A program made the position numbers and the translations under genes. Under the pieces are notes generated by a model. The model saw only the letters and a program-made list of their open reading frames with translations, had not been told where the DNA came from and did no database searches. A DNA stretch of 64,000 nt, taken from assembly GCF_902786545.1 (NCBI RefSeq), contig NZ_CADACU010000001.1, one strand, 5' to 3'. Origin of the DNA: an uncultured Anaerovibrio sp. Lineage in GTDB: Bacteria > Bacillota > Negativicutes > Selenomonadales > Selenomonadaceae. Of this stretch, positions 17,129 to 32,250 are shown in pieces (position 1 is the stretch's first letter; each line of letters opens with the position of its first letter).

Positions 17129-19105
17129 TTATTTCTTATCAAATCCATACTTTTTAAGATACCGATACAAGGTTACCCGGCTGACATGCAGAAGGTTGGC
17201 CATCCGGCTTACATTGCCCCCGGCGGCCTTCCACGCCTTGACGAAAATATCCTTATCTTCCTTCCACTTGTTATCAGGCTTAACATCCCCCATCAGATTG
17301 ATGTCCTCCGGACGAATGACTCCATCAGCGGTCTTAAAGAAGGCTACCTCAATGACCCCCTGCAGTTGCTTTATATTCCCCGGCCAATCGTAGTTCATCA
17401 ACAGCTCCACGGTTTCCGGGGCAATCTCCTTGACCGCCATCTGGTGCTGGCTGGCCAATTCATTGACAATATGGTTGGCCAAATCCCGGATATCCTCTCT
17501 ACGGTTTCTAAGAGATGGAATCCTTATCACACTGCGGGAGATAATATCATATAACTCACGGGAAAACAAGCCCCTTTCCGTCAGGCGCTTCAAATCGCTG
17601 TCACAAGCCCCAATAATCCGCACATCAATGGAGCGTTCCACATTTTCCCCCACCCGGTTTGACTGGCTGGTATTAAGGGCTGCCGCCAATTCCACCGCGA
17701 TATTCCGTGGCATTTTCTCGATTTCATCAATAAACAGGGTACCGCCGGAAGCCAGTTCCAGCTTGCCTGGATGACTGATATCCGTATTCAGGGCCACCCC
17801 AAACAATTCCTGTTCCAGGATTTCCGGGGTAGTATCACCGCAATGAATAGTAATCAGTGGTCCTGCCGCCCGTGGGCTGGCCTGATGTATACCATGGGCC
17901 ATGCGCTGCTTACCGGTTCCTGATTCACCCTGAATAAGCATATGATGCTTGTTCCGGGCAATTCGCAGGGCCTTGTCCTTGATGGAATTAAAATTGGTGC
18001 CACCGCTGACCAACGAATTGAGGCTGTATTTCGCCGTAAAACCAGCCGCATGGGCCACCAATGTCCGCAAATCTTCAATCGGCATGGAGACGGCTACTAC
18101 ACTATGTACCGTATCATCAGCATTATAATCCAATGGCACTACTGTAGTAATGTCCTCGTATGTCTTGGCCTGAGTAATCCAGGTCACTTCTTTATTGTAG
18201 GATGGAACTCCCTTGAACCCCCGATAAATAGGAGTATGACGATAGTTCATAATAACATCATTAAGATTGGTTTTCAGCTCATCATTGCCGTTTTTCTGAG
18301 CACCAATCCCCATGAGACGGCTCATACCCAGCTTATTGGCATAGGCCACCTCATCCCCAGCCATTACATGGTACACCGCAAACGGTGTAGCATCCAGGAT
18401 AGCTTCCTGGGCTTTTATCCGAGTGTATTGGTGCAAATATCCTTCCAATGACTGTTTAATAGTCAGCAGCATGGCAATAATAGCATCCTGAGGCATATCC
18501 GACTGCTCCACTGCCACCAAAGTAATAATATAGGAAATCTCATTGTCTACCACTACCGGAGCCGAGCAGGCATCACTTTGCTGACACTCCTTGGCCCACA
18601 TCTCCGGACCAAACAACCAAAATGGGGACTTATGTTCATAGGTAATACTTATACTGGATGTACCAATGTCCTCGATGCCAACCCGTACACCTTCGATTTC
18701 GCCTGGCGTCATCTGATAAAAAGGCATGGAATAGCTTTTTAGAACAGTGCAGTTGGCATCCAGCAAAAGCAGGCTGATATTATACTTTTGGAAAAACTCC
18801 CTAACATTAACACTGATATTTTCCAAATAATCAATAGCCGGCTTATTCTGCTTCTGAATCTCCTTCAGTTCCTCCACTGACAGGCGGTTAGCCGTTGACA
18901 TCTTTTCATAATCCACCCTTAGGCTGGCACTTTTGGCCCAGGATTTGGCTACCCAAGGGTGCACATTGGGGTCAATCTCTCCCTGTTCAATAAATCTATT
19001 ATAGTACGCTTCCAGCTTCTGTCTGCTCCGTCGTTCCCTAATCATCAATGCGGCCCTCTCTTTCCCGTAATCAAATTTATTCCTTCCCAAAATTTCACAT
19101 ATCAT
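17129..19105 (-). CDS. AAA+ enhancer-binding-type transcriptional regulator (AcoR-like N-terminus, Fis-type HTH) lacking the GAFTGA loop
   Basis: Walker A GESGTGK, GGTLFIDEI, DWPGNIKQL, and a C-terminal HTH (ANLLHVSRVTLYRYLKK). The sequence between ELFG and GGTLF reads VALNTDISHPGKLELAS. Confidence 0.85.
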   Translation of the reverse strand: MICEILGRNKFDYGKERAALMIRERRSRQKLEAYYNRFIEQGEIDPNVHPWVAKSWAKSASLRVDYEKMSTANRLSVEELKEIQKQNKPAIDYLENISVNVREFFQKYNISLLLLDANCTVLKSYSMPFYQMTPGEIEGVRVGIEDIGTSSISITYEHKSPFWLFGPEMWAKECQQSDACSAPVVVDNEISYIITLVAVEQSDMPQDAIIAMLLTIKQSLEGYLHQYTRIKAQEAILDATPFAVYHVMAGDEVAYANKLGMSRLMGIGAQKNGNDELKTNLNDVIMNYRHTPIYRGFKGVPSYNKEVTWITQAKTYEDITTVVPLDYNADDTVHSVVAVSMPIEDLRTLVAHAAGFTAKYSLNSLVSGGTNFNSIKDKALRIARNKHHMLIQGESGTGKQRMAHGIHQASPRAAGPLITIHCGDTTPEILEQELFGVALNTDISHPGKLELASGGTLFIDEIEKMPRNIAVELAAALNTSQSNRVGENVERSIDVRIIGACDSDLKRLTERGLFSRELYDIISRSVIRIPSLRNRREDIRDLANHIVNELASQHQMAVKEIAPETVELLMNYDWPGNIKQLQGVIEVAFFKTADGVIRPEDINLMGDVKPDNKWKEDKDIFVKAWKAAGGNVSRMANLLHVSRVTLYRYLKKYGFDKK

Positions 19106-19348
19106 CTTATTTTATCATCAGTGATTTTCTACTGCAAATTTTCTGATGAAAAAGTTACATTTTTAGGCTAATAATTAGTCAAAATATGTAATATTATGTT
19201 TACCCTACACTAACGGGTGCTAAGTCTTTCTTTTTAGATGAACGCCAAGCACCTGTGACGCTGAGAATAAATTCGGCTAAACTCAGTGAAAGATTACAGC
19301 TCTCGCTGAATAAGTCTCATTTTACTGCTTTATTCAAAGGGGCAAATA

Positions 19349-19357
19349 TGGTATAAT
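19349..19357 (+). promoter_or_regulatory. Extended -10 element TGGTATAAT
   Basis: Read directly, about 45 nt upstream of the ATG at 19403. The -35 is weak. Confidence 0.4.
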
Positions 19358-19402
19358 TTTTCTGCGTTTGTGCAAATTTTTTTAAGATAGGTGATTATTT
19401 CA

Positions 19403-19738
19403 ATGTCTACCCAATATAAGAAAATCCAGAAAAAAACTGCACCAAAAACCAATGCAGTTGCCAAATCAAATTTAAAACCTAAAGCCAGCCGGGATTTGCT
19501 GCTGATTATTCTGATAGTATTTACCCTGCTCATTCTTGGGCTGGCCTGGTCCAATATGGATAATCTCGGTCGGGGCATGTATGCCTGCCTCAGTGTTGGT
19601 ATGATTGTGGTTTATGTGAACCGGCATGCCAACTTCAGCGACAAAGTCCATCGAATTCTCATTGGAGTCAGCCTGGCTACCCTGTGCTCCTCCATCGCGC
19701 TCCTGTGCCTGAGTGTATATTACCAGTTCTTCGCCTAA
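19403..19738 (+). CDS. Small membrane protein (about 111 aa, 3 predicted TM)
   Basis: Lys-rich N-terminus followed by hydrophobic segments. ATG at 19403 inside the tracked ORF. Confidence 0.5.
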   Translation: MSTQYKKIQKKTAPKTNAVAKSNLKPKASRDLLLIILIVFTLLILGLAWSNMDNLGRGMYACLSVGMIVVYVNRHANFSDKVHRILIGVSLATLCSSIALLCLSVYYQFFA

Positions 19739-19799
19739 GGCATAATTAAATCCATACTAGTAGTGCATTCTTGCATTCATGTTTTATTTTGCCATAAAA

Positions 19800-19839
19800 A
19801 GACCCCCATAAGTTAGATTGGCCTAACTTATGGGGGTCT
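19800..19839. terminator. 17-bp hairpin; the T-run is on the minus-strand side only
   Basis: AGACCCCCATAAGTTAG / CTAACTTATGGGGGTCT perfect stem with a 6-nt loop. The minus strand continues TTTTTATGG. Confidence 0.5.
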
Positions 19840-19998
19840 CTACAGTTGCGACCTGGGTGGTTTTTCTGTTGATATGATTTATTTGCAATAACACATATTA
19901 TTGTCTTAGCAGGATTATCCTTTAACCATGAAGAATACTTCTCAGACAAGTAACTATTGAAATAGTCCATTAGCTCATCATAAAGGAGGAAAAATATT

Positions 19999-20571
19999 AT
20001 GAAGAAACAATCTATACGAATCCTATTATTGGTTTTAACCCTTGTTTGCGCCATGGCCTCGGTTGCTACAGCCGCAGCCTTGCCCCGGGTGGCCTTGATT
20101 TACACCAATAACGCCAACACTACCTACGATACAGAACTGGACAGCTGTGTACTGGATAATCTCAACAAGACCCTATCCCAGCATTTCGAAGTTGTTAAAA
20201 ATGACACAGTGGTGCAAAAACTGACAGATATGGGTATGACCGATCTTTCCATGGCAGAACGCCGCGATATCCTAGATGCCGTTGCCGGCGAGGAATGTAC
20301 CTATGTTATTTGTCTTTCCCTGGAGCCGTTTCAACGCAAGGAGAAAATCACCTTCTTCACCCAGGGGATTGAAATGATTGCCACCGTTCCGTGCAAAATT
20401 ATCGATGTTAAAAACGACCGTTATATCTATAACGGTAAGTTCGTAGAAAAGCAATCGGACAGCACCTGGATTGGCTCTGTTGGCAACAAGTCGGTGGCGC
20501 TCCAGGCCCTCCAGAAAGTAAACAAGGGCCTCAACAAAATTTTAAATGAAAAAATGCTTGTGGCTAAATAA
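19999..20571 (+). CDS. Secreted hypothetical protein (190 aa)
   Basis: AGGAGGA RBS, signal peptide MKKQSIRILLLVLTLVCAMASVATA, terminator downstream. Confidence 0.6.
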   Translation: MKKQSIRILLLVLTLVCAMASVATAAALPRVALIYTNNANTTYDTELDSCVLDNLNKTLSQHFEVVKNDTVVQKLTDMGMTDLSMAERRDILDAVAGEECTYVICLSLEPFQRKEKITFFTQGIEMIATVPCKIIDVKNDRYIYNGKFVEKQSDSTWIGSVGNKSVALQALQKVNKGLNKILNEKMLVAK

Positions 20572-20639
20572 AAATGTATGCCATATAGTTCAACCAGGAC
20601 AATCCCTTCGCTATTCACCAAAAAGGGCCTGACTGAAAT

Positions 20640-20675
20640 ATACCCTCCTCCCTGGACATCCAGGAAGGAGGGTAT
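20640..20675. terminator. Bidirectional terminator between convergent genes
   Basis: 16-bp stem ATACCCTCCTCCCTGG / CCAGGAAGGAGGGTAT with one mismatch, a 4-nt loop and a T-run after it. Confidence 0.7.
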
Positions 20676-20679
20676 ATTT

Positions 20680-22182
20680 TTATGGAATCCGACGGTCTTC
20701 CCCGTCGGTTATTACTTTCTTCCAACCATAGTACTGGGCATACATTATGTTATGGCTGCCCTCCGGCCGTGGCTCCAAATCCGAGCCCCAGGCCAAAATA
20801 TCCGTATTCCAGGTAACACAAGTCCATACTTCACAAACTTCATCCGCCAGCGGCCATACATCAATCTGATGCACTACCACCAGCTCCTTTTCCCTATTGG
20901 CATTTATATAGTCGATGCGGCTCATCCATTGCTGACGCACATCCCACTCCACCTTGCAGGTGAAAGCTGCCGTAACCAGTAACAAGGCCATCCCAATCAC
21001 TGTAACAGTCTGCCATATAGGCCTGCATTTCTGCCAAACGGCTTGATTGTTCAATAGCTCCTTCAAGGCAGACAGAGAGGCAATTATCACCGCCACGGTG
21101 GAAAAAAAGCCCGCCCGGGCTGGTGCTACTGGAACAAACAGCATAATAATCATAACGGATATGGCTCCCCCCAGCATAGCAGCCTGAAATCTGGTGGTCC
21201 GGTTCCAGCGTTGCCCAACCGGAAGCTGCCAGATATAAAAGCCAATAAGCCCCAACAAAGGAATCCATAACTTGGTGACAGCCAAAAAACACTCAAAGAA
21301 GTTTATTTGAAACATTAACGGGGTCCAATACATATCAGCTGGGAGACCCGGATTATATTCATACAATCTCTGCAGCTCTAACCGGACCATTTCCCCCGGA
21401 GCCTGGGTCAGCATCAATCCCCCAATGCACAGGAATAGGAATCCTACTATCATCCATAACTGCAGCTGCCTCTGCTGGCGAAAATAAAGCAGGGCCAATA
21501 AAGCAATAAACCCTGTGGCCGCGGCGCCAGTTTCCACGGACCAGCCGGCACACAAGCCGCTTATCGCCATAAGAGGAACTGCCCAGCGAGGTGGTTTTTG
21601 CCAAAAATCAGGCTGCCAATATTTTGCCGCAAAGGGCATCAGAAACAGAAATTCCAACAGCCCCATCCATAAAAATACACAGCTGCCACACATCCATAAA
21701 GTGGTCAAAAAAGGATCCGGCAGCAGGAACCAAAAACTCAGCACAAGCCATAGCATATAAGTACGGTTCATGGACCGCAGGGAAAGTCCGGTGCCCAGGC
21801 GGAAGGCCAGTAACATCAGTCCGCCAAATACCAGTGTATTAAACACATTAAATAGTTCCTTCCCCTGCCAGGCAAACAACTGGGTCAGCCCAATTCCCAG
21901 AATCCGTCCCCCCCAGGTAAAATAATGTGACCACTGACTGATGATGATATCACCAAAGGAGGTAATACGCTCTCTTGGCCCTACTCCATCCAGCAGATTG
22001 CCCCGATCGGCTCCATCCCAGATAAAAGCGTAAGGAATATCATCTGACACCATAGGCAGCATAAAATTTCTCACTAAAAACAATCCTATAAAAAGCAAAA
22101 ATATCATCTGCCAAGAAAACAGTTTGTTGATTGATTGTTCGCCATTTTTCACTAGTTGTCTGTCCCCCCGTATTTCTCCCAA
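20680..22182 (-). CDS. GT-C-like polytopic membrane protein, paralog 2 (putative glycosyltransferase)
   Basis: About 11-13 TM segments. SDDIPYAF acidic motif directly after TM1. The shared WxHYFxWGGR block and overall colinearity with the upstream paralog are visible by eye. Confidence 0.55.
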   Translation of the reverse strand: MGEIRGDRQLVKNGEQSINKLFSWQMIFLLFIGLFLVRNFMLPMVSDDIPYAFIWDGADRGNLLDGVGPRERITSFGDIIISQWSHYFTWGGRILGIGLTQLFAWQGKELFNVFNTLVFGGLMLLAFRLGTGLSLRSMNRTYMLWLVLSFWFLLPDPFLTTLWMCGSCVFLWMGLLEFLFLMPFAAKYWQPDFWQKPPRWAVPLMAISGLCAGWSVETGAAATGFIALLALLYFRQQRQLQLWMIVGFLFLCIGGLMLTQAPGEMVRLELQRLYEYNPGLPADMYWTPLMFQINFFECFLAVTKLWIPLLGLIGFYIWQLPVGQRWNRTTRFQAAMLGGAISVMIIMLFVPVAPARAGFFSTVAVIIASLSALKELLNNQAVWQKCRPIWQTVTVIGMALLLVTAAFTCKVEWDVRQQWMSRIDYINANREKELVVVHQIDVWPLADEVCEVWTCVTWNTDILAWGSDLEPRPEGSHNIMYAQYYGWKKVITDGEDRRIP

Positions 22183-23684
22183 TCGAACTCCCGGTCAATC
22201 CGGATGCTTTTTAAACCATAGTATTGGGCAAATATATTGGAACGGTTATCCGTCGGCTTATATTCAAGGTCTGCCCCATAAATCAGGTGATAGATGGTCA
22301 GGGAACGCGGTCCTAACCATTCATCCAGATTGTCGGGTATATATAAGGCAGAAACCACAATTTCATCATCCTGACGATGCTCATTCACATAAACCTTCCG
22401 ATCCTGCCACTGCTGGGCGTAAGAATTTTCTACATACAAGGCCCCCACAAAGGATAAAACCACATAAACAAAGGCTATAATGCCGGTTCCCAGTGCCAGT
22501 CTCCGCCAAAGCAAGGAATTCTGCAATACATCCCGCAAATAAGGAACACATTCCTTTAAGGCCGCCACCGAAGCTATGGTCAAAAACATAGTGGAGTGAA
22601 AGCCGGTATGGACCTTAAATTCCGGGGAAAACATCATCAGAACCAGTATTTCCAACCCAGCCAGAAGGAAGGCTATTATATAGGATTTATCACCACGCTT
22701 TTTTTCTCTCTGCATAAAATATAGCAGCAAAGGTAAAAACAAAAAGGCTTCCCATAAAATAACCGGCAAAAAACCTTCCGTGAAATTTCGGTAAAACATA
22801 GCAGGGGTAAAGAGCTGTTGGGCAGGCAATACATAATCCGCCTCGTACTCCAGCATATATTCCTCCCGCATTATGGAGCCCGGTGCCAGAATCAACAGCA
22901 TACAGCCAATAACAGCACCGCCAACTCCGGCCAGCATCCATGGACTTAATTTTCCCTCCCGATGGCGGATGGCTATCGAAGCCATTCCCAACAGAGTTAT
23001 GGTAACTAGGCTACCACCTTCCTGGGACCAGCCAGCCAGCAATCCCAACAGTGCCATCAGCAGCCATGCCCACTTGGGCCAATTCCTGCCAAACTCCCTG
23101 TTTCGATACGCCAGGGCATAGGGCAACAATAAACCACATTCCCACAAGCCAGTCCACATATATACACAGGTCCCCGTCATCCAAATCATGGTGGTTATGT
23201 AGTCCAATACACCAAAATTTAGTCCAATAATCACCCACAAAAAACATCCCTTGGCTTTTGCCGGTGATATTATTTTTCCCATAGCCAACCAATATAGAAC
23301 CAGCATCAACAGCAAATACACCAGGGTGTTGCACAGAGCAAAACCAGCTTTTTCCTGCCAGGCAAAAAATTGAATAATCAGCATGGAAAATGTACGACCG
23401 CCCCAAGAAAAATAATGGTTCCACTGGGATATGACAATATCCCCAAGGCTTTCAAGCCGTTGCCGTGGTCCGATGTCATCCAATAAATTCCCGCCGTGCT
23501 CCGAATTCCAGATAAAGGCATAGGCATAGTCATCACCACTCATGGGCATTAGCTGACTTCGCCAGAAAAATATCAGCCCAAAAATAAGCAATATGGCCTG
23601 CCATGGCAATTTATTCCATATTTTCTCTATACCACTTATCATATATAAGCACCTCAACCCACAAATAGAAAAGCTGCATTTCAT
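22152..23684 (-). CDS. GT-C-like polytopic membrane protein, paralog 1 (putative glycosyltransferase)
   Basis: SGDDYAYAF motif after TM1 and a QWNHYFSWGGR block. ATGA overlap with the RND stop; an alternative start is the ATG at 23642. Confidence 0.55.
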   Translation of the reverse strand: MKCSFSICGLRCLYMISGIEKIWNKLPWQAILLIFGLIFFWRSQLMPMSGDDYAYAFIWNSEHGGNLLDDIGPRQRLESLGDIVISQWNHYFSWGGRTFSMLIIQFFAWQEKAGFALCNTLVYLLLMLVLYWLAMGKIISPAKAKGCFLWVIIGLNFGVLDYITTMIWMTGTCVYMWTGLWECGLLLPYALAYRNREFGRNWPKWAWLLMALLGLLAGWSQEGGSLVTITLLGMASIAIRHREGKLSPWMLAGVGGAVIGCMLLILAPGSIMREEYMLEYEADYVLPAQQLFTPAMFYRNFTEGFLPVILWEAFLFLPLLLYFMQREKKRGDKSYIIAFLLAGLEILVLMMFSPEFKVHTGFHSTMFLTIASVAALKECVPYLRDVLQNSLLWRRLALGTGIIAFVYVVLSFVGALYVENSYAQQWQDRKVYVNEHRQDDEIVVSALYIPDNLDEWLGPRSLTIYHLIYGADLEYKPTDNRSNIFAQYYGLKSIRIDREFDWEKYGGTDN

Positions 23685-26600
23685 TCAGCAGCTTTTCCTT
23701 GGCGATTTCCCTCATATGTCCGGCTAATCAGTATGAACAGCAGTGGAATAACAAATACACCCAAAACAGTACCAACGGTCATGCCGCTTACTACAGCGAC
23801 TCCCATACTGCACCGGGATACACTGCCGGCCCCATCAGCAAAGGCTAATGGCAGGCAGCCAACTACAAAGGCAAAAGAGGTCATAATTATCGGTCTAAAC
23901 CGCAATTTAGCCGCAACCATTACCGCCCTTAACGGAGTCATTCCATTATCCACCCGTTCTTTGGCATACTCCACAATTAGTATGGCATTTTTAACTGTCA
24001 GCCCTACCATCAAAAGGATACCAATCTGAACGAATATACTTACCGGGATATCCGTTAACACCATTCCCAGCAATGCGCCACCAATACCCAATGGCACCGA
24101 CAGCAACACGGCCACCGGCAAGCTCCAGGACTCATACAGCGCCACCAGACACAGGAAAACAAATAATATACCCAAAGCCAAAATGTACACCACATCCTGC
24201 TGAGCCCGTTTTTCCTGCTGACTGTCCTTGGACCAGGCCAAACGATAACCCGTCCCTACTACCTTATTGGCAGCCTCTTCAATGGCCTCCATTGCCTCGC
24301 CGGAAGAATATCCATCAGCAGCGGTAACTGTCACCTGAAAACTCCGCACACCGTTATACCGGCTGATATAGGCCGGACCAACCCCCTTGTTGGATTGTAC
24401 CAGACTATTTATCGGTACCATCACTCCGTCTGCACTGCGGACATACAAATACCGCAAATCCGTTTCAGTGGCCCTATAGCCTTGATCAGCCTGCAATACC
24501 GTCTTGTACACCTGACCGTAGCGATTAAAATCATTTACTTCCTGACCACCTAGAAGCACTTCCAGGGTAGAATATATATCCGCCAGGTTCACATTCAGCT
24601 CCTTGGCCCGGTCCTCATTGACGGTAAAATCAATATAAGGCGTATTTATAGAAAAGCCAATATCCACCTCGTCCAGCTCTTCCCGACTTTTTGCTTCTCG
24701 ATACAGGGCCAAGGCCAGGTCACTAAGCTCCTGATCCGTATGACCGGTAATATCCATTACTTGCAGAGAAATGTCCCGGGAAATGAACGGGGCCACCACC
24801 AGCCCATGTGCCTCTGGTATAGACTGTTGGACTGCTTCATTGGCCGATGCAACAATATCTTCTGTATTAGCCCCCAACTCCCTGCGTTCGTCCCAATCCT
24901 TCATGGCCACAAACATTATTCCTGCACTGGACTTGGTAGTATCACTCAATAGATCCGCCCCAGTAACACCTACAATATTGGCCAAAGCATCATTTTGCAG
25001 CAAGGCTTCGGTCAGACGGTTGAGGGAATCAGCCGTACGGTTCATAGAGGTTCCTTCCGGCAGATTAACCCCAACCATATAGTACCCCTGATCCTCGCCA
25101 GGGATAAATTCAGTTGGCAACAGCCGATAAACAACGACAATTAACGCCGTCAGTACCGCCAATCCGGTCAATATCATACCGGTGCGTCGGATACACCAGC
25201 CCAAACCCTTTAAATATCTTTGCTGACAAGACCGGAAAAAAGACTGAAATCGACTTAACAAACGGTTATTATCTTGCTGTACACTCAATGATGGCAAAAT
25301 AAGCACACAAAGTGCCGGTGTAAGGGACAACGCCACTATTGCCGAGATACCCATGGATACGGCTATAGTCAAGGCAAACTGACGATACAAGATTCCCGTC
25401 ATTCCCTCAAAAAAAGCCACCGGCAAAAATACAGCCAACAAAACAAAAGCTATGGCTATAACCGGCTTTTGCACAATGCCCAAAGCCGCCATGGTAGCTT
25501 TCTTGATATCCTGTTCCCCCCGTTCCTGCTCCTGCATAACGCTTTCAACCACTACGATAGCATCATCTACCACCAGACCAATGGCCAAAATCAAGGCAAA
25601 CAGTGTAAGAAGATTTAGAGTAAAGCCCAGTAGCCTAAAGGCAATAAAGGTGGCTATAAGCGATACCGGTATAGTCAAAATGGAAATAATTGTCGCTCCA
25701 CGGTTCTGCAAAAATATATACATGATTATCATAACCATGATAATCGCTTCAATAAAGGTATACGATACCTCATGCATGGATTCAGAAATATACTTCGTCC
25801 GGTCTACTACTATTTTTAATTCCATATCCGGCGGGAAAGACTGCTTCGCCGTGTCCAAAATTTCCCGCACTTTAGTGATAGACTCCAACGCATTGGCGTT
25901 ATCCGCCAGAGAAATGCCATAGGCCGCGGCCGGCTTGCCATCAACGAAGGACAGATAACGGGTATCCTTGGCGCCTTCACTTATCCGCGCCACATCGCTC
26001 AAGCGGGTAATAGCGCCATTTTCCGACTTTAACACTATTTTCGCAAAATCTTCCGGGGTCTGCTTAGTGTTCATTACCCGGCCAATCAACTGCTTTTCCT
26101 GAATAGACGGCGAAGGCGATTTCCCCAAAGAGCCTACTGCTGGTCGGCTGTTTTGCTCCTTAATAGCGCCAGTAACATCGTTTACAGCCAATCCCCGTAC
26201 AGCCAACTTATCCGGCTGCAGCCAGATACGCATAGCGTAATCCTCCGAGTATTCGTCCACACTGCCTACACCGGATACCCGCTTTATCTGATCCAGAAAA
26301 TACGCTTTGGCGTAATTTTGCAGATAAACACTGTCATAGGTTCCATTAGGTGAACACAAAGCCATAACAAAAATCGTGTCCTTAGTACTGCGGCTAACCT
26401 GAATCCCAGATTCCTGAACCTCTTGAGGCAATCGTGAAAGAATCGTCTGCAGGCGATTCTGAACATTCACCGTAGCAATATCGCCAGCAATACCATAATC
26501 AAAGGTGATGCTCAACTGATAGCTGCCGGAAGAATCCGAATAAGAGCTGAGGTTATCTATCCCCTCTATGCCTCTTATTTCATCTTCAATAATTTTGGCC

Positions 26601-26782
26601 ACAGTATCCTGCAACACTTGGGCATCCGCCCCGGGATACTCAGTGGTAACATTGACCGTAGGCTGATTCATATTAGGATATTCCTCTACAGGCAGCTGCA
26701 CTGCCGCAAGTATTCCCAGCAATGTCAGCAAAATAGCCCCTACTACAGCCTGTAGCGGATGTTTAATAAAATATTGAGCCAA
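23681..26782 (-). CDS. RND efflux permease (AcrB/HAE1-like, 1033 aa)
   Basis: Typical N-terminus FIKHPLQAVVGAILLTLLGILAAVQLPVEEYP and a 12-TM, two-large-loop layout. TTG start 7 nt after a GGGGGA RBS. Confidence 0.85.
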   Translation of the reverse strand: MAQYFIKHPLQAVVGAILLTLLGILAAVQLPVEEYPNMNQPTVNVTTEYPGADAQVLQDTVAKIIEDEIRGIEGIDNLSSYSDSSGSYQLSITFDYGIAGDIATVNVQNRLQTILSRLPQEVQESGIQVSRSTKDTIFVMALCSPNGTYDSVYLQNYAKAYFLDQIKRVSGVGSVDEYSEDYAMRIWLQPDKLAVRGLAVNDVTGAIKEQNSRPAVGSLGKSPSPSIQEKQLIGRVMNTKQTPEDFAKIVLKSENGAITRLSDVARISEGAKDTRYLSFVDGKPAAAYGISLADNANALESITKVREILDTAKQSFPPDMELKIVVDRTKYISESMHEVSYTFIEAIIMVMIIMYIFLQNRGATIISILTIPVSLIATFIAFRLLGFTLNLLTLFALILAIGLVVDDAIVVVESVMQEQERGEQDIKKATMAALGIVQKPVIAIAFVLLAVFLPVAFFEGMTGILYRQFALTIAVSMGISAIVALSLTPALCVLILPSLSVQQDNNRLLSRFQSFFRSCQQRYLKGLGWCIRRTGMILTGLAVLTALIVVVYRLLPTEFIPGEDQGYYMVGVNLPEGTSMNRTADSLNRLTEALLQNDALANIVGVTGADLLSDTTKSSAGIMFVAMKDWDERRELGANTEDIVASANEAVQQSIPEAHGLVVAPFISRDISLQVMDITGHTDQELSDLALALYREAKSREELDEVDIGFSINTPYIDFTVNEDRAKELNVNLADIYSTLEVLLGGQEVNDFNRYGQVYKTVLQADQGYRATETDLRYLYVRSADGVMVPINSLVQSNKGVGPAYISRYNGVRSFQVTVTAADGYSSGEAMEAIEEAANKVVGTGYRLAWSKDSQQEKRAQQDVVYILALGILFVFLCLVALYESWSLPVAVLLSVPLGIGGALLGMVLTDIPVSIFVQIGILLMVGLTVKNAILIVEYAKERVDNGMTPLRAVMVAAKLRFRPIIMTSFAFVVGCLPLAFADGAGSVSRCSMGVAVVSGMTVGTVLGVFVIPLLFILISRTYEGNRQGKAAE

Positions 26783-26851
26783 TGATTTTTCCCCCTGCCA
26801 TCTATAGCAAAATGACTGTCACCCAACGATGAAGCTCGCTTAGGATAAGCC

Positions 26852-28588
26852 TCAATCAATCTCCAACATAAATCTGTTTTCATCCCCGGCCGACAGATAC
26901 CGTCGCTTCGGCAAATCAGCCGTAATCGACTCGATAAAGTGCTCCCGCCAGGAAAACTCCCCCTGCTGTACTACAGCAATAATATCATAAGGCGGGGCAT
27001 TATCCCGCACAGACATGATTATTGCCTCAGCTGGGTCACTGCTCAAAAGAAAGGATATTTCCAATTGAAAAACATTCCCCTCAGCCCGTTCCACCGCATG
27101 CATTCCTATCTCTTCCACCAGCAATCGCAGGCGTATTATTTTGGCCGCAGATACTCCCAGTTTCTGCAGGTCCTGGGCTACCTTGACAGACAGATCCATC
27201 ACTTCATCCATAACGCTATTGATATCGTAGGACAGCTGGCGATTCGTCCGTGCCTTGTCCATCAACAGCAGATTGCGGCCATGATGTCGGAGCTTGACCA
27301 CAGCCAGGTTAATACCGTAAGCTGCCACAAAGGCACCACCGATTCCAAGCCACATGCCTTCTATACCATACCACTCCCCCAGTAGCATACCTGCCGTGGG
27401 CAGGACCAGCAACAGCATGGTTTTTACCAGCAATCCCTGACTCCAGTGCTTTATATAAATATAATAATTGCTGTACATAAGGGTAATACCCAAAAACACC
27501 GTAAAAATCAAAAAACATCGCAGGGACCGGGTTGCCTCCACTGCAATAGATTTCTCAGCAACACCAAATATATATGGCAAAATTGGTGCACCTATAATTC
27601 CTACAACGGATACCAGCAGGCTAATGGCAATGGTTGCGGCAATGCCCAGCCGCATGGTCTTTTTAATGCACAGAAGATTTCCCTCCGCGTGATACTGACA
27701 AACCATTGGTTGCAGGCAATCCACCACCCCGGTATACAGGGCAATCACCAGCACCAAAACATTGGTGATTACCGTTACAACAATAATATGGCTTTCACCC
27801 CAACGGGCAATCACATAGGTGGACAGTATCACCGGAAGTACAGATAAGTAAAGGGTATCTATCGAATGATAAAAGCTATAGGTAAGTCCCCGAAATATTT
27901 GGCGAAAATCCCACCACCAGCTGAACTTCAGACGGCTTTTATCTGAAAGCAAAAAACGGCATTGCATAAAGCAAGAGATCAAAGTACCAATAACGGTAGC
28001 CAGACCAATCCCCATAACTCCCAGCTCATGGCACAGTACAACATCCAAGATAACATTAACCACCATGGCAACTACCGATGCCATAGCACAAATCTGTTCT
28101 TCTCCCTCTTGTACCAAAAATGTATATATAAAAATATTCAGAAACACAACCGGTGGAAGCCATTTTATGGCACTGTAATAAGCCAGAGCATAGGCCATCA
28201 GCTCCGGCGATATTTTCCAAAAGGCCAATATTTTTTCCTGAAAAGTCCCGAGGAGCACAACTAGACCTATCCCTAGCCCCAGAGATAATATTATGCCCTG
28301 GCTGAAAAATTGGCTCACTGCAATCCGATCGTCCTGCCCCTGAGCATAGGCAGCCATCATTCCCAGACCGTCAGCTATCATATAACTGATAAAAAACAAC
28401 ATGGGTAACAATGGAAATACCAGGGACATTGCGGCTACAGCCTCACCGCAAATCATCTGCCCTGCCACAACATTATCAATCAATACAAGTACATATGATA
28501 TCGTCATGGCCACCATTGACGCCATAAAAACTGACCGAAAACGGGTCGATACAACCGTTTTTTTCCCCAACTCAGTCAAAAATTTCAT
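26852..28588 (-). CDS. MATE-family transporter with about 144-aa C-terminal cytoplasmic extension
   Basis: 12 TM with MATE-like N-terminal pattern (IDNVVAGQ..GEAVAAMSLVFPL). The extra soluble tail spans aa 435-578. ATGA overlap with the upstream gene. Confidence 0.75.
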   Translation of the reverse strand: MKFLTELGKKTVVSTRFRSVFMASMVAMTISYVLVLIDNVVAGQMICGEAVAAMSLVFPLLPMLFFISYMIADGLGMMAAYAQGQDDRIAVSQFFSQGIILSLGLGIGLVVLLGTFQEKILAFWKISPELMAYALAYYSAIKWLPPVVFLNIFIYTFLVQEGEEQICAMASVVAMVVNVILDVVLCHELGVMGIGLATVIGTLISCFMQCRFLLSDKSRLKFSWWWDFRQIFRGLTYSFYHSIDTLYLSVLPVILSTYVIARWGESHIIVVTVITNVLVLVIALYTGVVDCLQPMVCQYHAEGNLLCIKKTMRLGIAATIAISLLVSVVGIIGAPILPYIFGVAEKSIAVEATRSLRCFLIFTVFLGITLMYSNYYIYIKHWSQGLLVKTMLLLVLPTAGMLLGEWYGIEGMWLGIGGAFVAAYGINLAVVKLRHHGRNLLLMDKARTNRQLSYDINSVMDEVMDLSVKVAQDLQKLGVSAAKIIRLRLLVEEIGMHAVERAEGNVFQLEISFLLSSDPAEAIIMSVRDNAPPYDIIAVVQQGEFSWREHFIESITADLPKRRYLSAGDENRFMLEID

Positions 28589-30186
28589 GCAAGCAGCTCC
28601 AATACTGATTTATCCGCTTCCTGTAGCCCCTTCAGCATTTCATCCACCAACTCGGACAAATAGCTCATTTTCCCTTCTGAATACCGACTGGCATCATATT
28701 CTATCTTCATACGGTAAGTACCATCGGCTTCAGCCACCACATGAATATCCAAGGAATTTTCCACCGCTGAAGCTTTGTTTTGCGGCAACTCCTGCAACAG
28801 GGCCATAGTACCACAAAGCGGAAAATCTCCACCGGCATTCCCCATCAAATTGCCTTTTTGTAAAATAAAGGTTGCACAGTCATCCTCCAGTCCTTCAGTA
28901 TACACCGTATCAAGACTGTCACGATACTGAAAGCCCTCGGCCACCTTTTTATCCAAATCCTCAATCAATTCCTGTACAGAAATATCGTTATGAAAATCAT
29001 ACCGTATTGGCATCTGAACAAGCATTAGGCCCATCAGTCGCATTTCCGCCCTGGTGGTACGGCCATTATGTACATAACTCATAATAGCCTCCCGACTGCC
29101 GGCCGACTTGGCTATAGCCAACATCACCGCAGCCATCAAAAAGGTATGCTCCGGATATTTTGTTTCCGCAAAAAAACTCTTCTGGATATTCTGCAGTTGT
29201 CTGAAATGGGCGTTAAATTTCCAGGACCCTTCATGTTTATCACTAGGTGGCAAATGCTTTTTTTCATCAAAGCCCTTCAGCATTTCCCGCCAATAGGCTT
29301 CCCCTACTGCATTCCTCGGCCGTCCGCATTCCTGCAATATATAGTCAGCATAGCTAATATCATTCTGCTTTATCGGTCTTCCCTTATAACGGAGATCCAG
29401 CTCACGGAAAAATAGCATAGCCGTAGCCACACCATCCATTATTACATGATAAAAATCCAAATACATATATTTCCCGGATGGGGTAATAATCAGATATATA
29501 CGAAATAAAGGCCGGTCAATAATTTGATATGGGCGCTTCAATTCCAGCTTTCGCTTTTCAAATTCATCCTCAGACAATGACTCAATCCGCACCTTGGACA
29601 AACTTCCATCAAAACGCTGGCATATTTCTCCGGTCTCCGGGTGGAATAATATCCGGCAACGGAAAATGTCGTGCGCCGACAGAGTGTCATTTATAGCCCC
29701 AGCCAGGCGTTCCATATCCAGGGAATCATCCAGTTTAGCCAGTCCGCCTTCATTCATCATAGTTGAGTTTGCCTTTTGAAAATGGGTATCCATCATCCAA
29801 CGCTGAATTGCCCGAAGAGGATAAAAGCCCGTCATACTGTCTGACACGGCACCATCTCCCACTTCCGCACTGGTATTGACAATCTCCACAAAGTGATTAA
29901 ATCCGGTCATATCAAATACATCTGCCACACTGGACTGCGGATTGACTACCCGAAATTTTATATTTTCCCTATCAGCATGTTTTTTGGCCATAAGAATAGC
30001 ACGAAGGCCCGCCGATGACATATATTCCAGGCGTGAAAAATCCACATCCAGCCTGGATACCTTCGTAGCAAATTCTTCAATACTGTGATTAAAGGCATCT
30101 ACCGTTGTGGCATCAAGCCGTCCATCCAGTTCCAGCACCAATACCCCGGCCGATATATCCTTCCTCATATTTATTTTAAGACTCAT
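28585..30186 (-). CDS. STAS domain fused to an NRPS-type condensation / HHxxxDG acyltransferase domain
   Basis: The N-terminal 100 aa have the anti-sigma-antagonist pattern (LELDGRLDATT ... DFSRLEYMSSAGLRAIL ... VFDMTGF). Then come YPLRAIQRWMM (C1-like) and FYHVIMDG (C3 motif, nt 29431-29451). Start set to the ATG at 30186, 9-10 nt after GGAAGGG. Confidence 0.75.
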   Translation of the reverse strand: MSLKINMRKDISAGVLVLELDGRLDATTVDAFNHSIEEFATKVSRLDVDFSRLEYMSSAGLRAILMAKKHADRENIKFRVVNPQSSVADVFDMTGFNHFVEIVNTSAEVGDGAVSDSMTGFYPLRAIQRWMMDTHFQKANSTMMNEGGLAKLDDSLDMERLAGAINDTLSAHDIFRCRILFHPETGEICQRFDGSLSKVRIESLSEDEFEKRKLELKRPYQIIDRPLFRIYLIITPSGKYMYLDFYHVIMDGVATAMLFFRELDLRYKGRPIKQNDISYADYILQECGRPRNAVGEAYWREMLKGFDEKKHLPPSDKHEGSWKFNAHFRQLQNIQKSFFAETKYPEHTFLMAAVMLAIAKSAGSREAIMSYVHNGRTTRAEMRLMGLMLVQMPIRYDFHNDISVQELIEDLDKKVAEGFQYRDSLDTVYTEGLEDDCATFILQKGNLMGNAGGDFPLCGTMALLQELPQNKASAVENSLDIHVVAEADGTYRMKIEYDASRYSEGKMSYLSELVDEMLKGLQEADKSVLELLA

Positions 30187-30335
30187 ATAAAGCATCCCTT
30201 CCCATGTATAAGGTAACTCACTATTTCTTATCTCTAATAAAATTTTACCAAAAAAAGAAAAATTTCTCAGTAGAATTTAAAATTATTTCTCTTATTATCC
30301 TTAAATTTAGGAACAAATGCAAGGAAAAGTATTTC

Positions 30336-30371
30336 AAAAAAATGTACGGCCCGGGCTTATGGCCCAGGCCG
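30336..30371 (-). terminator. Rho-independent terminator of the atp operon
   Basis: CGGCCUGGGCC / GCCCGGGCCG stem containing a U-G wobble that pairs only on the minus strand, followed by the T-rich tail TACATTTTTTT. Confidence 0.75.
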
Positions 30372-30405
30372 TCTGATTGTACAATAGAAAATTTAATTAT
30401 GTTTT

Positions 30406-30822
30406 TTATTCACCGTGCTTACCCAAGGCAGTCAATCGGGCTGCAGCACGCTTCAGGGCAGCTTCGGCCCTGATAATATTTATATCCACGCCGCCAGCCT
30501 TGTAGTCATCAATGCGCTTTTTAGCCCGGTTAAATGCCTTTTGGGCACGCTCCTCATCGATATCCTCAGGCAGCTCAGCCACGGAAGCCAGCACCGAAAT
30601 CTTATCCGGCTGTACCTCCATAAAGCCACCACCCACGGCCACCAATTTTTCTGCTCCATCAATTTTTACCCGCATGGCATGGGGAATGAGTCCCGTTACC
30701 AATGGAGCATGATGCGGCAAAATACCCAGCTCACCGGCTGTAGAACGGACAATCAGCATTTCGATGTCAGCGGCATAAACCACTTTATCCGGAGATACAA
30801 TCTCTAGCTTTATTGTAGCCAT
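30406..30822 (-). CDS. atpC: F1 ATP synthase subunit epsilon
   Basis: Position after atpD; sequence MATIKLEIVSPDKVVY... typical. Confidence 0.9.
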   Translation of the reverse strand: MATIKLEIVSPDKVVYAADIEMLIVRSTAGELGILPHHAPLVTGLIPHAMRVKIDGAEKLVAVGGGFMEVQPDKISVLASVAELPEDIDEERAQKAFNRAKKRIDDYKAGGVDINIIRAEAALKRAAARLTALGKHGE

Positions 30823-30825
30823 TGA

Positions 30826-32250
<1,425 letters not shown>

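Follow-up and report, generated by a model that had tools for sequence, protein, structure and literature searches.

A five-gene operon of an uncultured Anaerovibrio sp. combining a STAS-condensation fusion, a MATE transporter with a predicted RsbW-like tail, an RND pump and two GtrC-type membrane proteins

What is the joint task of five closely packed genes that encode a STAS-condensation fusion protein, a transporter of the MATE family, a resistance-nodulation-division (RND) pump and two polytopic membrane proteins of the family DUF6056? The question was raised by a stretch of 64,000 nucleotides from an uncultured Anaerovibrio sp. (contig NZ_CADACU010000001.1, RefSeq assembly GCF_902786545.1), hereafter called the window, in which these genes, numbered 1 to 5 in this order, occupy the minus strand from position 30195 down to 20680. 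An earlier reading made from the letters alone (the sequence-only reading) had proposed an undescribed system for acylation, membrane translocation and periplasmic-face glycosylation of an envelope molecule. In the present analysis the operon was divided into two modules, and the answer favoured here, though given somewhat less than an even chance, is that both jointly modify and/or export an envelope-associated acylated glycoconjugate. The earlier proposal was strengthened by the conservation of the unit, by the GtrC homology of genes 4 and 5, and by GT2 genes found beside the condensation gene of relatives in the absence of gtrA; its analogy to the mycobacterial PapA5/MmpL pair did not hold, and the nonribosomal peptide synthetase (NRPS) contexts of relatives speak against it.

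All five open reading frames (ORFs) were present at the coordinates given by the sequence-only reading, and its domain calls for genes 1 to 3 agreed with Pfam and NCBIfam. Conservation of the grouping was assessed in a set of 80 loci with 10-kb flanks (designated by L numbers), which was obtained from a scan of species-representative genomes. In 9 loci, which belong to two genera and represent two gene orders and at least three chromosomal contexts, the five genes were kept together. Gene content and order agreed with the window in Anaerovibrio sp. JC8, A. lipolyticus LB2005 (L003), Anaerovibrio sp. RM50 and one metagenome-assembled genome (MAG), where the chromosomal context was a different one. 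In L001, atpC was followed by genes 1, 2 and 3 as in the window, up to the end of the contig. The order was permuted in Selenomonas ruminantium and S. caprae, where the RND gene and two DUF6056 genes preceded the STAS-condensation and MATE genes. The synteny check thus showed the unit to be conserved in Anaerovibrio and, permuted, in Selenomonas, and because the five genes stay together in two orders and at least three contexts, the arrangement is more than chance.

Within the window, the ATGA overlaps of four nucleotides (nt) between genes 1 and 2 (28585-28588) and between genes 3 and 4 (23681-23684) follow from the ORF coordinates; the former was also kept in Anaerovibrio and S. caprae. The single 69-nt gap, between genes 2 and 3 (26783-26851), was found with its own GGGGGA ribosome-binding site (RBS) and a TTG start leading into MAQYFIK. 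The 31-nt overlap of genes 4 and 5 claimed at 22152-22182 exists if gene 5 starts with TTG at 22182; a GTG start at 22152 gives a TAGTG overlap of 1 nt instead. As the GTG is preceded by a GGGGGGA RBS and agrees with the MVKK..LSWQ N-termini of the Selenomonas orthologs, it appears at least as plausible as the TTG.

The operon can be divided, by comparison of the loci, into two separable modules, genes 1-2 and genes 3-5. The STAS-condensation and MATE combination recurred in about 50 rumen loci, and the condensation and MATE genes were direct neighbours in 47 of the set of 80. The RND gene was present in 9 of 80, and pairs of DUF6056 genes lay within 10 kb of the condensation gene in 13 loci, in five arrangements. 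In Schwartzia, the RND gene was missing, and the STAS-condensation gene and a divergent MATE gene were accompanied by two DUF6056 genes on the opposite strand; L034 had the order DUF6056, three condensation genes, MATE, DUF6056, GT2 and metallo-beta-lactamase-type hydrolase. Genes 1 and 2 only were present in L006, between the atp operon and the genes that lie downstream in the window (L006:9983-13305, corresponding to window 26855-30132). The atp genes of the two stretches were 88-97% identical at the protein level and all flanks 87-97%; gene 1 was 68% and gene 2 59% identical. Judged by these flanking genes, the window belongs to an Anaerovibrio species to which the L006 MAG is closely related, and the difference in identity points to a hypervariable island at a conserved site, in which the module of RND and two DUF6056 genes is either present or absent. 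High variability relative to the flanks is typical of surface-structure loci.

The same separability was considered as evidence for a neighbourhood without a shared pathway, in which MATE and RND serve drug or toxin efflux while the condensation and GtrC-like genes are passengers held by local synteny. L006 with genes 1-2 at the same site, a 3-kb insert between the modules in three S. ruminantium loci, the low number of loci with RND and a discordant history of gene 5 (see below) would fit such a case. It was nevertheless judged very unlikely: the gene junctions are translationally coupled here, the five genes are kept together in two orders and several contexts, DUF6056 pairs or a GtrB-like GT2 recur beside the condensation gene in unrelated arrangements, and genes 1 and 2 are bound together by a STAS/RsbW-like complementarity, which is described in the following.

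Gene 1 (28585..30195, minus strand; 536 aa) is a fusion of two domains. The STAS domain (aa 12-111, 29863..30162, minus strand) scored 67 bits with the Pfam STAS model (cut-off 22.6 bits) and 71.3 bits with the anti-sigma antagonist model TIGR00377 (cut-off 53.45 bits), and the homolog profile matched SpoIIAA, RsbV and TM1442 in the PDB. Its residue Ser61 (30013-30015, minus strand) lies in the motif Y-x-[SA]-S-A-G-L-R, which reads Y-M-S-S-A-G-L-R in the window and of which the second serine was invariant in all 41 family STAS sequences; from the motif alignment, we take Ser61 to be the counterpart of the phospho-acceptor Ser58 of SpoIIAA. The NRPS-type condensation domain (aa 122-524, 28624..29832, minus strand), identified by Pfam and by its PDB relatives, matched PF00668 with 134.5 bits over profile positions 2-433 of 456. 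According to the homolog alignment, the active-site motif, which the sequence-only reading had written as HHxxxDG, is YHVIMDG (29431-29451, minus strand); Y249-H250-x-x-M253-D254-G255, with the catalytic His, Asp and Gly, was nonetheless invariant in 12 homologs.

The best PDB relatives of the condensation domain were bacitracin synthase 3 (E 2.5e-27), PvdL and surfactin synthetase. A PapA5-class identity was rejected, as these canonical NRPS domains were nearer and PapA5 was not among the 47 PDB matches of the homolog profile at E<=1e-3. Membership in the fatty-acid-amide group of OaaC was rejected on the basis of the motif (YHxxxDG versus DHxxxDS) and of weak similarity, and the stand-alone condensation domain structure 12kh_A gave a weak and partial match (E 1.9e-7). 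Altogether 360 homologs of gene 1 were detectable, nearly all of them in metagenomes or isolates of rumen or gut origin. The taxa represented include Anaerovibrio (74-96% identity), Schwartzia, Selenomonas, Acidaminococcaceae and Fretibacterium, to which the species-representative scan added Succiniclasticum, Quinella, Oribacterium and Lachnospiraceae. Each Anaerovibrio species genome yielded one member of the family only.

Gene 2 (26852-28588, minus strand; 578 aa) encodes a MATE membrane part (aa 1-434, 27287..28588, minus strand) with about 12 transmembrane (TM) helices by hydropathy. The match to PF01554 (MatE) reached 85 bits in 2 stretches, and DinF-BH and PfMATE were the best PDB matches; the score remained under the NCBIfam subfamily cut-off (TIGR00797, 99.5 versus 147.4). 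About 145 C-terminal residues past MatE had no Pfam or NCBIfam assignment. This extra domain had been noticed by the sequence-only reading, which missed its SpoIIAA/SpoIIAB-type pairing with the STAS domain. An AlphaFold2 (AF2) model of the tail was obtained with pLDDT 74 and pTM 0.71, and in a Foldseek search against the PDB the top 21 matches were all SpoIIAB, RsbW or UsfX (E from 7.6e-6, prob 1.0, TM-score 0.64-0.72). The cytoplasmic C-terminal domain (26855..27286, minus strand) thus models as the GHKL fold of SpoIIAB/RsbW-type anti-sigma switch kinases, with degenerate ATP-binding motifs. Profile searches pointed in the same direction. HATPase_c_2 matched the window tail below threshold (E 0.005, 17.2 bits versus a cut-off of 27.4) and the tail of a distant ortholog with E 7.6e-4 over profile positions 5-123 of 127, and a profile of 27 tails gave a weak PDB match to RsbW that aligned both the N box and the G1 box in register. 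The homolog P0128 has the precomputed architecture PF13581+PF01554, and one fragment was labelled 'anti-sigma regulatory factor (Ser/Thr protein kinase)' by one source. An RsbW-like tail was present on 47 of the 50 MATE proteins encoded next to the condensation gene; a protein search with the tail alone as query gave 3 matches.

SpoIIAB, RsbW and UsfX are proteins that bind STAS antagonists. Since the tail of gene 2 models as this type of fold, genes 1 and 2 are predicted to encode one half each of a partner-switching pair. Nothing was found in the literature on STAS-condensation or MATE-RsbW fusions. Of the 80 loci, 20 contained a third component, the gene for a phosphatase of the architecture dCache-HAMP-SpoIIE (PP2C), which in most cases immediately precedes the STAS-condensation gene; in A. 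lipolyticus (L003) it lies about 2 kb upstream. In 18 of the 20 loci the condensation enzyme was scored with a STAS domain. The other two were L021 and L024, for which the tblastn map gave a STAS match in a gene that the ORF call had missed. None of the 80 loci had the phosphatase gene together with a STAS-less condensation enzyme.

Several findings weigh against a functional switch of this kind in the window. In the N box of the tail, EEIGMHAVERA, a His takes the position of the Asn when aligned to RsbW; the G1 box reads RDNAPPYD, with Ala at the first Gly, and a G2 box was not found. No PP2C phosphatase was found within the 64-kb window either. The pairing is moreover imperfect among relatives: about 30 loci have both a STAS domain and an RsbW-like tail, but an RsbW-like MATE was combined with a STAS-less condensation enzyme in 15 loci, and the reverse pairing, STAS-condensation with a tail-less MATE, was seen in 3 loci of Lachnospiraceae or Oribacterium. 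Degenerate motifs and lack of a phosphatase gene make phospho-control doubtful in this genome, as far as can be read from the sequence. The window tail, having lost key ATP-binding residues, is probably a docking platform only, and docking between STAS domain and tail may be constitutive in this genome. The N-box Asn was kept in Anaerovibrio sp. JC8 and A. lipolyticus. The three loci with reverse pairing (L055, L065, L078; Oribacterium and Lachnospiraceae, which are monoderm) retain STAS on the condensation enzyme and the adenylation-thiolation-condensation (A-T-C) protein described below, and their MATE proteins comprise 441-454 aa and are devoid of the RsbW-like tail; an amino-acid permease gene is a neighbour in L065 and a carboxyltransferase gene in L078.

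The pair could also be a regulatory device, with the MATE tail acting as a membrane-anchored anti-sigma factor and the STAS-condensation protein as its antagonist, so that a sigma factor or another regulator would be controlled by transport or substrate load. Partner switching is best known for sigma-factor control, and a few outputs are unexplained, such as SypA in the making of Vibrio polysaccharide. All of the closest structural neighbours of the tail are anti-sigma factors, and the STAS domain falls into the family of anti-sigma antagonists. Nevertheless, neither the gene maps of 30 representative loci nor the conserved neighbour families showed a sigma-factor gene conserved beside the pair, the catalytic His, Asp and Gly are retained in the condensation domain, which is therefore an enzyme rather than a mere STAS carrier, and partner-switching modules with outputs other than sigma factors are well known (review PMC8256260). 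Of all explanations considered, this one was given the lowest credence.

Genes 4 (22152..23684, minus strand; 510 aa; DUF6056 328 bits) and 5 (20680..22182, minus strand; 500 aa; DUF6056 364 bits) encode paralogs that are 37% identical to each other. Throughout the family (2,760 representative clusters), little could be taken from the literature, in which nothing was found on DUF6056 function. An acidic DD motif sits after the first TM helix; family alignment placed it at D51-D52 of gene 4 (23529-23534, minus strand) and D47-D48 of gene 5 (22039-22044, minus strand). In the motif P-x-x-x-D-D-Y of 71 family members, D48 was invariant and D47 at least 90% conserved. A profile of these 71 sequences, including genes 4 and 5, was aligned by hhalign with GtrC of Salmonella phage epsilon34 with 99.94% probability (E 3.5e-37, 370 columns), and the alignment takes in the P-x-x-x-DD-Y motif. 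The phage gene (gene 20, 'GtrC') is part of a gtrA-gtrB-gtrC cassette and carries the RefSeq label DUF6056. The position of GtrC is also taken by DUF6056 in Providencia plasmid pTJ519 (GtrA-GT2-DUF6056); further contexts were GT2-GT39-DUF6056-acyltransferase-GT39-GT2 in Monoglobus and DUF6056-GT2 in Pseudobutyrivibrio.

GtrC-type enzymes transfer a sugar from bactoprenol-phosphate-sugar at the periplasmic face of the membrane. By the profile alignment, DUF6056 is the family of epsilon34 GtrC, that is, of the bactoprenol-phosphate-glucose-dependent O-antigen glucosyltransferase class, and this homology makes genes 4 and 5 very probably polyprenyl-phosphate-sugar-dependent glycosyltransferases of the periplasmic face. 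The epsilon34 protein gp20 is 30-40% identical to STM0557 (PMC2629481), and the locus STM0557-0559 adds alpha-1,4-glucose to O-antigen galactose (PMC3688519). The sequence-only reading had called the two proteins GT-C-like; a GT-C fold was not shown by hhalign, Pfam or PDB searches. With hhalign, the probability was 0.4 against E. coli ArnT and, for the 71-sequence profile, against ArnT plus two Monoglobus GT39 sequences, PDB profile searches with DUF6056 gave no match, and the AF2 model of gene 5, built from a two-sequence alignment, was unusable (pLDDT 38.7); the glycosyltransferase assignment is based on the homology to epsilon34 GtrC instead. In Pfam searches of 19 DUF6056 members at E<=10, no GT-C family was matched; a single member had one weak EpsG match. 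A search with concatenated MATE and DUF6056 profiles returned 6 matches, none of them with DUF6056.

Gene 5 was the most conserved gene between genera (63-81% identity, versus 44-56% for the other four, with the exception of the highly divergent Schwartzia MATE at 20-22%). The copy in the window was 76-78% identical to Selenomonas and 63-64% to other Anaerovibrio, unlike genes 1-4, which suggests that it was laterally replaced. In one Schwartzia MAG, the gene 5 ortholog was split into two ORFs of 288 and 210 aa (L009:14942-16444), apparently by either a frameshift or an assembly error. A lone gene of the DUF6056/GtrC type was encountered on the conjugative IncFIA resistance plasmid pE112_EC1091 of E. 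coli (L085, 3947-5590), amid blaCTX-M, blaTEM and IS26 and with no gtrA or gtrB beside it.

Gene 3 (23681..26782, minus strand; 1033 aa, TTG start) encodes an RND permease of the AcrB/CmeB (HAE1) type. It scored 989 bits with TIGR00915 (cut-off 940 bits) and 972 bits with ACR_tran, versus 65 bits with MMPL, and it matched CmeB and AcrB end to end with about 720 bits; an MmpL-type identity was therefore rejected. With a canonical NRPS-type condensation domain and a HAE1 pump, the PapA5/MmpL analogy of the sequence-only reading was abandoned. Homologs of AcrA and TolC were absent from the window and from the 80 loci, including the 9 with RND (tblastn, E. coli queries, E<=1), although partners may be encoded elsewhere. 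That gene 3 is a typical multidrug-type AcrB/CmeB homolog, whose place in a glycoconjugate pathway is ad hoc, also tells against the favoured account.

The chemistry of condensation domains requires a thioester donor. The A-T-C query matched only the condensation domain of gene 1 itself in the 64-kb window, and none of the Anaerovibrio loci had an adenylation or thiolation domain in its 10-kb flanks. The statement that carrier protein, adenylation domain, membrane-fusion protein and outer-membrane factor are lacking thus held for the operon and, by the searches run, for the window; many relatives do hold an A-T-C module, in many cases between the condensation and MATE genes. A second, larger condensation-family protein (638-1,237 aa) was encoded in 16 of the 80 loci together with condensation enzyme and MATE, in Succiniclasticum, Acidaminococcaceae, some Selenomonas, Fretibacterium, Oribacterium and Lachnospiraceae. 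The copies that were scanned (L019, L078) had the architecture A-T-C, with an adenylation domain passing TIGR01733 (amino-acid adenylation). In the window, the acyl donor could be an acyl-CoA, an acyl-ACP or a carrier encoded elsewhere. Both locus types were seen in the S. ruminantium MAG UBA3715, in which L013 has RND-DUF6056-DUF6056 followed at a distance by STAS-condensation and MATE, and L031 has PP2C, STAS, STAS-condensation, A-T-C and MATE; in Selenomonas, the A-T-C module of L031 could serve the L013 locus in trans.

These NRPS contexts are a reason to consider a small natural-product pathway with two-step export, in which the product of the condensation enzyme, a soluble or amphiphilic amide or ester like those of NRPS-like systems, would cross the inner membrane through the MATE and then pass from the periplasm over the outer membrane by means of the AcrB-type pump. 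Membrane-fusion protein and outer-membrane factor would be encoded elsewhere, and the GtrC-like pair would alter the lipopolysaccharide (LPS) of the producer for self-protection or glycosylate the product. The nearest relatives of the condensation domain are canonical NRPS domains, A-T-C-type proteins accompany it in the loci given above, and gene 3 is a full-length CmeB/AcrB homolog; many module 1 relatives lie in ordinary NRPS contexts devoid of glycan genes, which favours a secreted small molecule over a glycoconjugate. The mru0068 layout in Methanobrevibacter ruminantium was read as nonribosomal peptide sensing, regulation and export (PMC2812497), gut Clostridia make fatty-acid amides with free-standing condensation domains (PMC13142362), and the confinement to rumen and gut across phyla suggests an ecological trait (antagonism or signalling) spread by transfer. 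Set against this are the missing adenylation and thiolation domains in the window and Anaerovibrio flanks, the missing export partners near RND in 9 loci, the YHxxxDG motif, which differs from DHxxxDS of the fatty-acid-amide clade, and the recurring linkage to GtrC-like and GtrB-like genes, for which a natural product offers an ad hoc explanation only. This possibility was therefore rated as rather unlikely, while still to be taken seriously.

The linkage to glycan genes was most direct in L034, L067 and L070, where a PgfS/ArnC-like GT2 gene (full-length match) directly follows the condensation gene. L034 and L070 also encode a MATE, L067 has no flippase gene, and gtrA was present in none of the three. 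A hydrolase of the Lactamase_B_2 family (375-377 aa) is encoded one or two genes downstream of the GT2 in these loci (L034:10367-11500, L067:8069-9196, L070:13977-15110). Because condensation enzyme and MATE recur with GtrC-like and GtrB-like genes in the absence of GtrA, the most economical model is that a lipid-linked sugar is tailored, flipped by the MATE and transferred by the GtrC-like enzymes; it is regarded as possible rather than probable. The condensation enzyme would first acylate or aminoacylate a polyprenyl-phosphate-sugar or another lipid-linked acceptor at the inner face of the membrane. The acylated acceptor would then be flipped by the MATE, which would replace GtrA, and the GtrC-like pair would move the flipped sugar to LPS or another surface glycan. 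Finally, the RND pump would take over the product or by-products in the periplasm and move them on. Neither gtrA nor a gtrB-like GT2 was found in the operon or window, so that donor and acceptor remain points against the model, as does the negative A-T-C search.

Docking of the STAS domain on the RsbW-like tail would make the enzyme work at the mouth of the transporter and couple synthesis to translocation. It would be set by phosphorylation of Ser61, the state of which would in relatives be controlled by the neighbouring membrane-bound dCache-HAMP-PP2C phosphatase. In its most specific form, phosphorylation-gated docking couples synthesis and flipping of an acylated or aminoacylated polyprenyl-sugar, which the GtrC-type pair installs on the surface of these diderm Firmicutes; as a whole, this version is unlikely.

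Known systems resemble parts of the operon. The SpoIIAA-SpoIIAB-SpoIIE and RsbV-RsbW-RsbU switches of Bacillus share the STAS domain with a conserved Ser, the RsbW-fold partner and, in relatives, the sensory SpoIIE-type PP2C phosphatase; here, by contrast, STAS is fused to an enzyme and the kinase-like domain to a MATE, no sigma factor is involved and the ATP-binding motifs are degenerate. The gtrABC cassettes (epsilon34, Salmonella STM0557-0559, Shigella Sf phages) contain the GtrC homologs of genes 4 and 5, whereas the operon has neither gtrA nor gtrB, two GtrC-like paralogs instead of one, and a linkage to condensation enzyme, MATE and RND. The Arn system for lipid A modification with 4-amino-4-deoxy-L-arabinose (L-Ara4N) and three-component glycosylation (PgfS/PgfM1, GtrB/YfhO) likewise make a polyprenyl-phosphate-sugar, tailor it, flip it and transfer it outside, with the difference that the window has no GT2; to our knowledge, tailoring by an NRPS-type condensation enzyme or flipping by a MATE is not known from them. 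PapA5 and PapA1-3 with MmpL (mycobacterial phthiocerol dimycocerosate and sulfolipid) are alike in logic only, a condensation-fold acyltransferase working with a lipid transporter of the RND superfamily; in the operon the condensation domain is nearer to canonical NRPS domains, the pump is of the HAE1 type, and MATE, STAS and GtrC-like proteins have no counterpart there. AcrAB-TolC and CmeABC are comparable by the alignment of gene 3 with AcrB and CmeB and differ by their partner genes, which are missing from the operon, the window and the 9 RND loci. OaaA/OaaACP/OaaC of gut Clostridia also include a free-standing condensation domain in a gut anaerobe, perhaps with a small or non-carrier-bound acceptor; they differ in the DHxxxDS motif and lack a STAS domain, a MATE tail and glycan genes.

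We know of no studied system of this five-gene make-up, and in this composition the earlier claim of an undescribed system stood. It had to be qualified, since clusters of NRPS, MatE, antagonist and phosphatase were noted before in the rumen methanogen M. ruminantium M1, where mru0066-mru0071 comprise an NRPS flanked by an antagonist, serine phosphatases and MatE (Leahy et al. 2010, PMC2812497). The habitat agrees, and the layout corresponds to bacterial 'type B' loci (phosphatase, STAS, NRPS, MatE, phosphatase); in contrast, the methanogen cluster has a complete two-module NRPS and free STAS proteins and is known by annotation only, and the operon of the window lacks adenylation and thiolation domains and adds RND and two GtrC-like genes. 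Every part of the operon belongs to a known family, and the neighbourhood of NRPS, MatE, STAS and phosphatase has been noticed before. New are the RsbW-like tail on a MATE, as modelled, from which follows the split of a partner-switch pair over two genes, the equation of DUF6056 with GtrC, and the modular link of NRPS-type and Gtr-type genes with an orphan AcrB-type pump.

Two gains in annotation are independent of any model, namely DUF6056 as the GtrC (epsilon34/STM0557) family and the RsbW-like nature of the MATE 'extra domain'. If docking occurs, partner switching would extend to the direct post-translational control of a biosynthetic enzyme and a transporter, and if it is gated, this would be the first partner switch with an enzyme-transporter output instead of a transcription factor. 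Negativicutes are diderm Firmicutes with a poorly known outer-membrane biology. If the glycoconjugate model is correct, LPS or surface glycans would be decorated by a route not known before, NRPS-type chemistry would be linked to Gtr-type periplasmic glycosylation, and a handle on envelope biogenesis in Negativicutes would be gained. Among abundant rumen bacteria the core pair is widely distributed, with Selenomonas, Anaerovibrio, Succiniclasticum, Quinella and Schwartzia as carriers, and a rumen methanogen has a look-alike cluster, so the product may matter for the ecology of the rumen.

The upstream boundary claimed for the operon was confirmed, and the downstream hairpin is real. Upstream, the intrinsic terminator of the atp operon (atpC) lies outside the system (30346..30372, minus strand; 11-bp G+C-rich stem, T7), followed by an AT-rich leader (30196..30345, minus strand), in which a promoter-like site, CTGAGA-17-TGnTAAAAT (30242-30270), and an RBS, GGGAAGGGA, were found by sequence scan. 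Directly 3' of the gene 5 stop, a strong hairpin was read from the sequence (20639..20676, minus strand; 17-bp stem, one mismatch) and is the probable operon terminator; its T-tract is weak, and it was not listed by the consensus terminator scan. Promoter-like and terminator-like matches in the scanned region were about as frequent as expected from shuffled sequence, and the base composition was unremarkable. The interval 19000-31500, compared with Rfam at E<=1, showed one chance match to a small RNA and no family in the leader, and a riboswitch or leader RNA was rejected. Between the terminator and the conserved downstream genes, two ORFs (19999-20571, plus strand; 19746-20054, minus strand) had no family match and the region was absent from L006; they may be part of the variable island or not be genes. 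Further downstream, a sigma-54-dependent activator (17129-19105, minus strand; Sigma54_activat, AAA lid, HTH_8) was retained near the atp-side context in L006 irrespective of genes 3-5 and is probably unrelated to the operon.

At least one gene of a potABCD-type spermidine/putrescine ABC importer was found in 34 of the 80 loci, mostly in Selenomonadaceae and Quinella MAGs. In the mapped loci (L039, L047, L049, L076 and others of Selenomonadaceae and Quinella), it was located on the same strand directly downstream of a STAS-less condensation gene. Selenomonadaceae and Quinella-type bacteria link polyamines to peptidoglycan, and a polyamine acceptor, with VibH-like chemistry, is conceivable for the STAS-less enzymes. 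The idea was retained as no more than a lead, as 9 loci also have a conserved pyruvate kinase gene on the opposite flank, which may point to plain synteny, as the need for a thioester donor is unfit for amidating a free D-Glu carboxyl, and as the window has no pot genes. In S. ruminantium, a metal-sensitive repressor of the CsoR/RcnR/FrmR type is encoded directly before RND-DUF6056-DUF6056 (L011:383-748, L013:778-1143), and the 3-kb insert contains genes for an Hpt-domain protein and an ORF of about 577 aa, which was read by eye as presumably 2-isopropylmalate-synthase-like. A gene for an SLH-domain protein was located between or near the MATE and DUF6056 genes in Schwartzia (L009:13421-14863) and also in L015 and L076; from the SLH domain, the only one shown, we take the protein to resemble the outer-membrane tether OmpM/Mep45 of Negativicutes.

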